Shown here: positions 6,801 to 9,800 of the stretch, one piece after another
Numbering within the stretch: the stretch's first letter is position 1
Layout: every line of letters starts with the position of its first letter
From: Xylella taiwanensis
Lineage (GTDB): Bacteria; Pseudomonadota; Gammaproteobacteria; Xanthomonadales; Xanthomonadaceae
Assembly: GCF_013177435.1 (NCBI RefSeq)
Contig: NZ_CP053627.1
Coordinates: 1,440,001 to 1,472,000 of the forward strand
Length of the DNA: 32,000 nucleotides
Direction: 5' to 3'
Made by a program: the position numbers

Positions 6801-9800
6801 GCTGGCGTGGCTTAACAAGCGCTACTGAAGGATTGGGCATCGACGACATCTTATTAGTAGTTGCGCATGATGCAGTCAACCGAGTGCTCCTATGTCGAGT
6901 GATGGGACTGCCGTTGGCCCATTTATGGCGCTTCCACCAAGCACCTACTACGCTGAATTTGCTCGAAGGAAAAGATCTTGACCAGCTACAAGTAGTACGC
7001 CTAAACGACTGCGCTCACCACACACCGTTCTTCGGTGAAGCTAGGCATCGTGCACTGTAGCATTGATTTTAGAGAGCAAGGTTCATAAGCCCATGCATAA
7101 ATGGACATAATATGCATTATGCGAAATGAAATGTGAAAGAGCGACAAAGCGCGCAGACACACTGTTAAGTTGGCTACAAACCAAACTTAACACCCTCAAA
7201 GCCATGCTAACGCCAGCATCGCTAGCATGGCTGTAGTCATCGAAGATCCCATCACCGATCAAGTGCTCAATGAAAACTGGACGGGGTTTGCATTTAGAAA
7301 CGGATATCTGGTAACACCGGAAAGACGGTACATCGAACCGTATCAACTGCGATGGCTATCACTCACATGCACACTGGCACGGGAATGGCAAAAAATGATG
7401 GAGCACGCACGAGCGGTTCCATTACAAGGCGGCCCTGCCGCGACCGATCATCAACGCCTCATTAACGACGCCCAAAAAACGGGTTTGCGTAACAGAAAGT
7501 GTCCTGACACGGACATAGGATCGGTCATCCTGCTTAGCCATGTACTGATGCAACGCCAACACAAGCGTTAACCGTAGGGGGTAAACCCCCTACACCCCCT
7601 ACTCGGATACAAAGATTAAGGAAAAATCCTAAGCTAAACCGAGGATGCACATTCCAGCCAATTTTCGATCTTAAGGCCACGAATACGCTTAAACTCTTTA
7701 ACATTATCCGTTACCAATGTCATCCCCAGTACATAAGCATGAGTACCTATCAATAGATCATTTAAGCCGATAGTTTGTCCTACTGACTCCAACTCTGCAC
7801 GAATGCGACCATATTCAGCGTCGGTAGGAATATCCAAAGGCAGCACAGGAATTGTTTCAAGCATGAGCTTCACCTTCGCAAGCAACTTGGTCGATCCTTT
7901 CTTTGCACAACCATACCGCAACTCAGCAGCGACAACGATGCTAGTGCAAACCTCTTTTGGATCGACCTTTTCAATGCGACACGCAACTAGTCCAAACGGA
8001 TTACGGATCATGTCGCTAATGATGTTCGTATCGAGCAAATATCCGCTCAAAATATGTCATCCGGCTTAGCAAGCATGTCCTCAATTTCAGGAAACTGATC
8101 TTCAAGTCCAAGCGGATCTTCCGTTTTCCACTGCGCTAACAATTCTATAATGTTGGTAGGCATGCTCACAGGCTCAATGATGAGCTTGCTACCCTCGCGA
8201 TGAATCAATACTCGATCCCCCGGTAATTCAAACTCAACCGGAATTCTCACGGCCTGACTGCGATTGTTGCGGAACAGCTTAGCTTCCTTGAGTCTAGATG
8301 ATGGCATAGAAATAGACATAGTATCGGCTCATTGTATATGCCATATTGTATATGTAAATATCGGAGCTGCGGTCGCTGCGACTATCATCAAATTCTTCTG
8401 ACCAATACTTAAGGTAACGCCCCTGCCGCAGACACACTCACCTGCTTAGCCGTACTGCCCTGAACCAGTGAAGACGATACTTGCCCCTGTTGCATAGCAC
8501 TATGCTCCTGCACACGCTCACGATACGGGTTATACACCGGACCCCGCCGCGCGATCGTTCGACACTCCAGCTGTGAAATGTCATACACCGTCCCCTGCTC
8601 GGTGTAACACGTGCAGGACGAACCCTTATACACCCCCTGAGCATCCAGACCCGCACCGCCAGACATACAGATCAATTGAGGATCTACCGTCGGGGAACGA
8701 TGATCATAAATCGGAGCCGTCCACGGCATCGATGCAAAACGCGGTAAATGATCTTTGGCATAGGCTGTGACTGTCGGCCAACGTGGCCCCTCCCCACGGC
8801 TAGCTTCACCCGCTTTCGGGGACGCATCGCCGCCGGTACCCGGCGTGCTCCGCGTCCCCTCAATTGAGGAAGAAAACCCCGAAGGGATCAAGGAACGATA
8901 GGCATAAAAGACACAGGCCACAATGACAACAACCATTAACGGAATCAATACAAGCTGCCAAGGCAGACGCATCTTGATGGTATGCACTTCGGCTGATTTA
9001 TACAGCTTATACACGTGCTTAGGTAGACGACGCACCGAATGCCGTGAAAACTGACGATTGGTAGAAGAATCAGTCTCTTCAACAAGCTGATCCCAGTCAT
9101 ACACATCTAGCCAGGACGTGCCAAAACGACGTTTCACAAAGGTATGACGGCCAATCAAACCACGCACAAAAGGATACAACTGCTTATGCGCCAATTGCGT
9201 CGTCCACACAAAATCTAACCCACGGTGGCGATGCTCAGCAAGCTCAAGGGCATGAGGCGGCGTCGGCTGATGGGACGCATTAAATGCACTGCCAAACCAT
9301 TTCCACGCCTCATCTATAAAAATAATAGCTCCATGAGGCACAAGATACTCACCCTGATCATTTTTAGCATTCCACTGCCGAGGGTCCGCCAGATCCGCCG
9401 CAAGGCCAGGGGCTAATCCATCAATCCCCGCCGCAAAAATCGGACGCTGAGCACGCTCACTCTCAGCCAATAACATCTCCATCATTAAAGCCGTTTTCCC
9501 GCCTCCAGGCGTAGCCGTAATCACGTGAATAGGCATACACGCCCCCTGTCAAGAAACCGATGTGGGCGGCGTACCGCCATAACCGCGCTTAAATAAATAC
9601 AACCGCCCATTCAATACCGCAAACCGGGCCACATACGCAGAAATAATCATCGACAACGCACGATCAACATTCAAAATACCCAACGCCCTCACCGCCAAAT
9701 CGCCGAACTGACCACCGCTAGAACCCACACTATCCATATACGTATATAACTGATCCACAAGAGGCGATATCACAAAATGATAGGACCCCCAATTAATACC

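Follow-up and report, generated by a model that had tools for sequence, protein, structure and literature searches.

In CTXphi the genes ctxAB lie directly after zot and beside the phage attachment site (attP), and tandem CTX/RS1/TLC arrays at dif include mini-elements that lack structural genes (Waldor & Mekalanos 1996). Unrelated toxin-antitoxin (TA) pairs are reportedly scattered across Vibrio superintegrons, where they are thought to prevent large deletions, an idea attributed to Szekeres et al. in 2007. A survey of 181 inoviruses recorded 15 TA sets, including YafQ/RelB (Toxin_13), PemK with a new antitoxin (Toxin_10) and a PIN family (Roux et al. 2019, Supplementary Table 5; PMC6813254), and the prophages Pf4 and Pf6 of Pseudomonas aeruginosa, with cores more than 98% identical, differ mainly in accessory TA modules that affect prophage maintenance and production (PMC12328805). 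That filamentous phages place accessory addiction genes after the last assembly gene is already known in outline, and since this general principle stands in the literature, the locus described here refines it and does not overturn it. The locus occupies a 32,000-nucleotide stretch of the Xylella taiwanensis genome (assembly GCF_013177435.1, contig NZ_CP053627.1, positions 1,440,001 to 1,472,000; hereafter the window, in whose own numbering all coordinates are given), identified by self-BLAST as three tandem inovirus prophages. Each of the three carries a different type II TA pair in the same interval, or slot, between a conserved hairpin and the end of zot.

The array resembles each of the systems above in part. 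The catalogue of Roux et al. shares YafQ/RelB, PemK and PIN families with it and describes no fixed slot, no bounding hairpin and no tandem array carrying several different TA pairs; an initial reading made from the sequence alone (the sequence-only reading) had held that TA modules are not standard inovirus cargo, a view that neither this catalogue nor the Pf4/Pf6 pair allows to stand. Like Pf4 and Pf6, the prophages are co-resident, with near-identical cores and different TA modules (PfiTA and KKP in the Pf phages). The Pf prophages, however, sit at separate tRNA loci and not in tandem at dif, their accessory region is terminal in the prophage, beside the integrase or excisionase gene, their TA families are others (a ParE-like PfiT and the kinase-kinase-phosphatase, KKP), and no conserved hairpin boundary has been described for them. 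With CTXphi the array shares the use of XerCD, cargo placed after zot and before the attP region, tandem arrays and satellites, the slot having the relative position of ctxAB; it differs in that the cargo of CTXphi is an exotoxin and not a TA pair, that the CTXphi attP is a folded single-stranded DNA (ssDNA) site, and that unit 3 here uses an integrase and tRNA-Lys. As in the Vibrio superintegrons, several unrelated TA pairs occur in a repetitive, recombination-prone array, yet the cassettes there are bounded by attC and moved by IntI, neither of which is a feature of this array. The same order of zot, accessory genes, DUF3653/PSB15, dif-like attP and repressor is found in XaF13, Xf109, SMA6 and phiLf, and the hairpin motif of Stenotrophomonas prophages is homologous to the one described here; Xylivirus-type phages of Xanthomonas and Stenotrophomonas differ in filling the slot with TraX-like and other genes, with TA in none of 51, and phiLf in having its mapped packaging signal near the origin in gene II, with another consensus. 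In the literature searched we found neither a tandem array in which three different TA families share one position defined to the nucleotide, nor a slot-bounding hairpin across Xanthomonadales inoviruses, nor the trace of a displaced ancestral gene.

The left edge of each slot is sharply defined. In slots 1 and 2 the hairpin GTAGGGGG-TAAA-CCCCCTAC is followed by ACCCC, together GTAGGGGGTAAACCCCCTACACCCC, at 7574..7598 and at 15190..15214 (the latter with an RNA fold z-score of -3.65), and in slot 3 it takes the form GTAGGGGG-GAA-CCCCCTAC with ACCCC(C), at 23239..23263; for the form with the four-base loop, 0 chance matches are expected. Self-BLAST homology ends at 7598/15214 between copies 1 and 2 and at 15214/23262 between copies 2 and 3. 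Just as the sequence-only reading had stated, the last C of ACCCC is the point at which homology stops in every comparison, and homology of the slot 3 hairpin region to at least 20 related contigs ends, by BLAST, at 23263-23266. On the opposite side, the zot stop codon (8409/15845) is where copies 1 and 2 become homologous again, apart from mismatches at positions 8415 and 8417; the restart first placed at 8418/15854 is the same boundary, set slightly conservatively. If everything between ACCCC and the zot stop is counted, the intervals measure 810, 630 and 700 bp and are mutually unrelated, the earlier figures of 815, 636 and 705 bp differing through trivial matters of definition. The hairpin is a stable, perfect 8-bp stem, present once per slot, whose constant partner is the 3' end of a DUF3653 gene or its remnant. 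Phages from the Xylella type to those of Stenotrophomonas keep the sequence of the stem and of the ACACCCC tail, and the loop varies freely.

As judged from their sequences, the three cargoes are intact, self-contained and mutually unrelated type II TA pairs, for which growth inhibition and neutralisation are predicted. In slot 1, on the minus strand, vapC (7634..8050) encodes a PIN-domain toxin with the full domain (Pfam PIN, 1.9e-16), which aligns with the VapC of PDB entry 3zvk at 1.4e-18 and keeps E43 and D98, D7 (in LLDTN) and D115 (in TDN) being read from the translation; vapB, for an AbrB/MazE-type antitoxin (8047..8319, minus; PF04014, 7.6e-8), overlaps it by 4 nucleotides. A promoter-like site, TTTACA-16-TACAAT, at 8331..8358 on the minus strand overlaps the direct repeats ATTGTATATG (two copies, 8331-8354) and is a candidate vapBC operator. 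Slot 2 holds, also on the minus strand, yafQ for a ribonuclease toxin of RelE fold (15224..15496; Pfam YafQ, 1.5e-30), which matches Escherichia coli YafQ (PDB 4ml2) at 5e-33 with conservation of the DHPL, DAHVEPD and TGxHA motifs that contain the catalytic His and Asp, and an abutting dinJ/relB antitoxin gene (15496..15756, meeting yafQ at 15496; Pfam RelB, 3.9e-23), which has an alternative GTG start at 15774 and is called as 86 or 92 amino acids in sister assemblies. The candidate operator of this pair is a perfect 11-bp inverted repeat, AATGTAGCTCA/TGAGCTACATT, within a promoter-like site at 15792..15815; it also resembles a terminator for zot read-through. In slot 3, on the plus strand, a mazE-like antitoxin gene (23321..23542; PF11455, 7e-31) overlaps by 4 nucleotides the pemK/mazF toxin gene (23539..23862; Pfam PemK, 4e-21). 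As the sequence-only reading had stated, each module has repeats of its own, and they precede the antitoxin gene; the short pair of CATGTAAC repeats before mazE, at 23286-23305, is by itself not beyond chance in the window (33/100 shuffles). The identities and coordinates first proposed for all three pairs were borne out by Pfam and, for VapC and YafQ, by PDB alignments, as was their lack of conserved orientation, VapBC and DinJ-YafQ being transcribed in the direction of zot and MazE-like/PemK in the opposite one. Two-gene homologues of all three cassettes occur on plasmids at 64-74% nucleotide identity, the vapBC homologues at about 72% over both genes and the pemK homologues, on Xanthomonas plasmids, at about 74%. 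Among deposited phage genomes we found no inovirus with close homologues of the three toxins, and in exact-protein look-ups all three occur only in this same phage context.

The contents of the slot in relatives place these cassettes in perspective. About 130 related loci were surveyed. One sample, defined by the hairpin, joined 41 IMG/VR contigs that carry it with same-species loci and the window, to give 72 hairpin instances; wherever sequence sufficed, zot converged on the hairpin from 11-1122 bp away. The 49 hairpin-to-zot intervals extracted (26 of them distinct) gave slots of 0-1118 bp, common to at least four Zot lineages (about 375, 382, 337 and 444 amino acids; 22-100% identity) and to two unrelated Rep families, Rep_trans and G2P-like. 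The commonest cargo, in 31 of the 72, was a coiled-coil protein of 75-110 amino acids whose C-terminus forms a membrane anchor (PHROG 6330), here called ccTM for coiled-coil transmembrane protein; ccTM together with a 138-amino-acid signal-peptide protein accounted for 10, and a DUF3800 protein for 2. Nothing recognisable was present in 11, in several of which the hairpin abuts or overlaps the end of zot. The remainder were MazEF (4/72), VapBC (10/72) and DinJ-YafQ (4/72), the last two confined to this species and representing mostly the same locus in sister assemblies. Outside this species, TA cargo was limited in the hairpin-defined sample to 3 of 57, all MazEF, with two further contigs bearing MazEF remnants found by BLAST. 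In a second sample, chosen by Zot alone and hence unbiased by the hairpin, 74 loci had enough downstream sequence, and the relaxed motif GGGGTGTAGGGG-N3-10-CCCCTAC occurred in 56; these 56 slots held a TraX-like gene with or without a 130-150-amino-acid open reading frame (ORF) in 51, ccTM in 5 and TA in 0. The usual occupant is ccTM in Xylella-type phages and a TraX-like gene in Stenotrophomonas and Xanthomonas phages, and some phages have an empty slot. A metagenome scan yielded 67 hairpin instances, mostly on short contigs of unrelated or unknown context; in 14 the hairpin lay beside or over the end of zot without a slot, and none had a TA pair.

Overall, these findings establish the hairpin-to-zot interval as a genuine and old accessory slot whose content is mostly lineage-typical; the survey proposed in the sequence-only reading thus did recover a recurrent slot, with a usual cargo other than TA. 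The same cargo is found with different Zot lineages and one lineage with different cargo, which shows that cargo and backbone have been reassorted. Moreover, since TA cargo is the exception among relatives (none of 56 in the Zot-defined sample), the presence of three TA families in one array is non-random. Two observations on other occupants may be added. In high-GC environmental relatives (L123, L126 and L131, and the metagenome loci L155, L171, L178, L199, L203 and L206) the zot reading frame contains the hairpin or ends directly at it, and there is no slot, which implies that the motif is older than any cargo. The slots of ten loci (L024, L026, L112, L117, L120, L122, L133, L135, L137 and L142) hold the usual occupants, conserved but uncharacterised: the tail-anchored coiled-coil protein of PHROG 6330 and a cysteine-rich secreted protein of 138 amino acids (PHROG 7936), both of which are candidates for superinfection-exclusion or host-interaction factors.

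Some indication of how cargo reached the slot comes from its zot side. The last 42 nucleotides of slot 1, beside vapB (8361..8402, plus strand), encode GAAVAATIIKFF* in frame with a stop, a probable remnant of the 3' end of ccTM; they resemble the C-terminus of the ccTM of the same species, GAAAATVAIKFF*, and match it in nucleotide sequence over ATCAAATTCTTCTGA at 15/15 positions, with 1 of 300 shuffles as good. We regard this as suggestive, and not as proof, of a displaced gene. In slot 3 the match is weaker, and is to the spacer behind the ccTM gene of a relative (3/300 shuffles). The left edge of cargo always falls within a few bases of ACCCC and the right edge is variable; together with the remnant, this unfixed right edge points to replacement of ccTM by illegitimate recombination and not by a two-site exchange. 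Later movements are easier to trace. Units 1 and 2 share a backbone with 100% identity for 5,551 bp (8418-13968 versus 15854-21404), the remaining differences lying in the regulatory and repressor region, the dif-proximal sequence, the DUF3653 gene and the slot, and from this identity it follows that the two backbones were homogenised or exchanged very recently. Elsewhere in the same species (L015) a near-identical DUF3653-hairpin module is joined to ccTM and a 337-amino-acid Zot; pairs of loci often resemble each other on just one flank of the hairpin, a purely qualitative comparison given that unrelated flanks score about 0.55-0.62 by global alignment; and among sister assemblies of equal size both the order of the units and the adjoining host flank vary. 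In view of this junction, the discordant flanks and the reordered units, ordinary homologous recombination among co-resident copies is enough to move cargo once captured. In the sister loci (L015-L022 and L144-L151), the VapBC and DinJ-YafQ phages are flanked by either the histidine-phosphatase side or an HNH/FtsY/MutY side, and in one configuration the VapBC phage adjoins a fourth remnant (TatD, 337-amino-acid Zot, ccTM, and a hairpin with a CTAG loop). It seems that the array often changes its arrangement or its location.

The MazEF cassette has the widest distribution of the three. It occurs at about 81% nucleotide identity beside the same hairpin in five IMG/VR contigs (L113, L125, L135, L137 and L141, by BLAST), which are probably X. 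fastidiosa prophages and share with the array the hairpin and about 100 bp upstream of it as well. In L137 (9242-12433), and similarly in L141 and L113, a 3.1-kb mini-element lies between copies of the 49-bp tRNA-Lys attachment (att) sequence and contains the hairpin, MazEF, a 110-amino-acid ORF, Rep_trans and a repressor, with neither integrase nor structural genes; it has the appearance of a satellite comparable to RS1, or of a derivative that arose by deletion and retained the TA pair. In L125, L028 and L135 a MazEF remnant adjoins the integrase of a complete phage that carries ccTM. Retention of a TA pair after the loss of every structural gene is consistent with what is expected of an addiction module.

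These features are perhaps best accommodated by viewing the hairpin-to-zot interval as a permissive accessory ("moron") site of this inovirus lineage, located after the last gene of the morphogenesis operon, zot, and closed on its other side by the conserved 25-nucleotide hairpin, the boundary of the convergent attP/DUF3653 (PSB15-like) module. The ancestral occupant in Xylella-type phages would have been ccTM, a tail-anchored coiled-coil membrane protein, which three plasmid-type type II TA operons may have replaced in three prophages, the first capture occurring by illegitimate recombination and later reshuffling of cargo and backbones by homologous recombination or gene conversion, with no need of a dedicated cassette recombinase. 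On balance we judge it somewhat probable that each TA pair serves as an addiction module for its own prophage unit. The sequences themselves show the anatomy, the intact genes, the recurrence of the slot, the reassortment of cargo and backbone, the scarcity of TA cargo among relatives and the homology to plasmids; what we infer is that the pairs act in addiction, how they were captured and what the hairpin does. Loss of a unit would remove the antitoxin gene while the stable toxin persists, whether through excision by XerCD or the integrase or through recombination between the identical 5.5-kb backbones: the last of these would remove DinJ-YafQ, Xer action on the pair of dif-like sites would remove VapBC, and excision by the integrase would remove MazEF. 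Because the antitoxins belong to three families, cross-neutralisation is unlikely, and no unit would cover for another. A further extension, that each unit is locked by a different module precisely where collapse, XerCD or integrase excision would remove it, that selection in polylysogens favours diversity of TA families at the slot, and that the hairpin is a protein-bound or replication-pausing ssDNA element which makes the site a hot spot for capture, is in our view doubtful.

Several observations weigh against addiction and against illegitimate capture. VapC was found on 20 contigs, compared with 31 index blocks each for YafQ and PemK, and prophage 2 directly abuts the host flank in some assemblies (L149), from which it follows that unit 1 can be absent or relocated in spite of its VapBC. 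Related Xylella-type arrays lack TA cargo, so TA is not required for maintenance in tandem. The ccTM remnant is short, at 12 codons, with a tblastn E value of about 1 across the window; no such remnant is detectable in slot 2; and the left edges of cargo keep closer to the hairpin than random illegitimate insertion predicts, unless selection is strong. Whichever function applies, the locus is a natural experiment, in which a 5.5-kb identical backbone in units 1 and 2 and a diverged third carry three modules at one position, and it could be used to test the effects of TA on the stability of polylysogeny, on the collapse of tandem arrays or on conflict between co-resident phages. A Xylella strain often contains several filamentous prophages, and prophages of this kind influence how pathogens of plants and humans form biofilms and cause disease. 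The conserved hairpin also offers a sequence handle for cataloguing accessory cargo in Xanthomonadales inoviruses.

The precision of the left edge raises the question of a site-specific process, and the sequence-only reading had proposed a recombination mechanism targeting the slot. In its fullest form, the hairpin would be the site of an integron-like cassette system, with XerCD, the phage integrase or the rolling-circle Rep acting on folded ssDNA. Many phage pairs do lose homology at the same nucleotide after ACCCC; the stem and ACACCCC tail persist from Xylella to Stenotrophomonas while loops vary; the ssDNA replication of these phages would let hairpins fold; and at least seven unrelated cargo types begin within about 40 nucleotides of it. 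A cassette system would nevertheless be hard to reconcile with a single perfect 8-bp hairpin on one side only, with no repeat or other shared site on the zot side, where the boundary is variable and keeps remnants of earlier content. The hairpin is equally present at empty slots or overlapping the end of zot, in phages with and without an integrase and with either Rep_trans or a G2P-like Rep; it has no dif-like core; IntI is absent; and cargo in most relatives is lineage-typical and not shuffled. We consider such a system very unlikely, and the proposed targeting mechanism is not upheld. At the other extreme, there may have been no turnover at the level of cassettes at all: prophages 1 and 2 would be different phages with modules homogenised by gene conversion, and TA merely part of a larger divergent block of regulatory region, repressor, attP, DUF3653 and TA. 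This would explain why 8418-13968 is 100% identical between copies, why the other differences form one block on the circular map (13969-14721 plus 7104-8417), and why the repressor alleles differ too. The segment from dif to the hairpin is, however, 90.4% identical over about 500 bp (about 95% in protein) with unrelated sequence on both sides, which demands at least two breakpoints, one of them exactly at the hairpin; and the joining in L015 of a near-identical DUF3653-hairpin module to ccTM and a 337-amino-acid Zot, like the reassortment of cargo and backbone across the family, makes turnover-free descent quite unlikely.

A different function for the cargo has also to be weighed, namely that the TA pairs act mainly in anti-phage defence through abortive infection, or as weapons or brakes between co-resident filamentous phages, in place of a ccTM that may have mediated superinfection exclusion. 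Precedent exists in Pf6 KKP, which regulates Pf production and defends against lytic phages, and in PfiTA, which modulates Pf4 production (PMC12328805, PMC11341870). The usual occupants of the slot are membrane and secreted proteins typical of host-interaction cargo, and three toxins would mean three triggers. None of the six TA proteins matched a defence model of PADLOC (E <= 1e-3), and the nearest nucleotide homologues are modules of plasmid-maintenance type, so we regard defence as unlikely to be the main role. Defence or control of phage production would not be mutually exclusive with addiction.

The hairpin itself appears to belong to the module on its left: it is probably a functional cis element of the attP/DUF3653 module, and cargo would accordingly be accepted only between it and zot. 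The DUF3653 protein or a host factor may bind it, it may form part of a minus-strand origin, or it may be a terminator lacking a U tract and so keep the converging transcripts apart. Since a terminator scan made no call and T tracts are absent from both strands, it is no intrinsic terminator of the canonical kind, though it may still terminate transcription by a route that needs no U tract. The packaging signal of phiLf is a hairpin of 20-26 nucleotides with the stem GGX(A/-)CCG(C/T)G and C/T in the loop, bound by PSB15 in the origin/gene II region; the stem GTAGGGGG/CCCCCTAC, placed after the DUF3653 gene, differs from it in both consensus and location, and we rejected it as a packaging signal of this type. 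Its association with two unrelated Rep families makes a plus-strand origin unlikely. The annotated "terminator" of XaF13, considered as an equivalent, lies inside the DUF3653 coding region and has a different sequence. No dif-like core is present in the hairpin, and Rfam detected nothing at the hairpin or in the cassettes, its only matches in the window being tRNA-Lys and a thiamine pyrophosphate (TPP) riboswitch. On three metagenome contigs of 1.4-1.8 kb (L165, L166 and L196) the motif occurs at both ends, 1.3-1.6 kb apart, which suggests small circular or tandemly repeated elements that share it.

The backbones that carry the slots are of two kinds. Units 1 and 2 are Xylivirus-like inovirus prophages exploiting XerCD (IMEX), with a dif-like attP and no recombinase of their own. 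A dif-like XerCD attachment site, ATTTCGCATAATGCATATTATGTC (7104..7127, minus strand), marks the junction of host and prophage 1, where the sign of the GC skew flips; its core is identical to the annotated attP of Xanthomonas phage XaF13, TATACATTATGCGAAAT. A second dif-like site (14722..14745, minus) marks the junction of prophages 1 and 2. In both units the site is followed by a DUF3653 gene on the plus strand, the hairpin, the TA slot, a minus-strand block of zot, DUF2523 (pVI-like), a pIII-like gene, coat protein B and Rep, and a plus-strand DUF3693/HTH repressor gene; the inovirus hallmarks found by Pfam are Zot, DUF2523, Phage_Coat_B and REP_ORF2-G2P. By self-BLAST, 7099-7598 and 14717-15214 are 90.4% identical and 8409-14302 and 15845-21738 are 99.2% identical, and copy 3 shows 68-76% identity to copies 1 and 2. 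The zot genes, homologues of gene I, lie on the minus strand at 8409..9536 (Pfam Zot; its stop codon forms the right edge of slot 1), 15845..16972 (by homology to copy 1) and 23963..25111 (Pfam; 65% amino acid identity to copies 1 and 2); a profile search of genome contigs with the Zot alignment gave a best match of 57% amino acid identity, in Stenotrophomonas/Xanthomonas.

Unit 3 relies on an integrase and tRNA-Lys att repeats instead of XerCD and dif, and its replication protein is Rep_trans. It has a tyrosine integrase gene (22067..23035, minus; Phage_integrase, 1.1e-23) and is bounded by two copies of the 3' 49 nucleotides of tRNA-Lys. One, recognised by repeat match at 22130..22178, forms the left attachment site (attL); the other lies within the intact tRNA-Lys(UUU) gene (30281..30356, minus; ARAGORN and Rfam), which is the attachment target and the right site (attR). 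No dif-like site separates units 2 and 3, and 22066-22178 is 99% identical to 30217-30329. Prophage 2 has a left end of dif type and a right end (21739-22178) composed of a repressor C-terminus and the tRNA-Lys 3' copy typical of integrase-type phages, and on this evidence appears to be chimeric. The DUF3653/PSB15-like genes, on the plus strand, are at 7227..7571 in prophage 1 (PF12375, with WTGFAF and TPE motifs in the translation) and 14844..15188 in prophage 2 (about 95% amino acid identity to copy 1), and a degenerate remnant in prophage 3 (23074..23292, plus) retains only the C-terminal half and reads through the hairpin. In translation, units 1 and 2 both show the WAGFXF-like and TPE motifs by which PSB15 is defined, a protein that binds the packaging signal in Xanthomonas phage phiLf-UK (bioRxiv 10.1101/2024.03.19.585677), and DUF3653 is also a domain of XafT, the Xer activator of TLCphi (PMC6744903). 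The N-terminal DUF3653 (WAGFXF) domain, the packaging-signal binder in Xanthomonas phages, is missing from prophage 3 and from its relatives of integrase type; if the protein is needed, co-resident phages would have to supply it in trans. The host side to the left of the array carries gpx, thiC, an S46 peptidase gene and a histidine phosphatase gene, with the TPP riboswitch upstream of thiC (3888-3986, minus strand; RF00059, 60.4 bits), an ordinary host feature.

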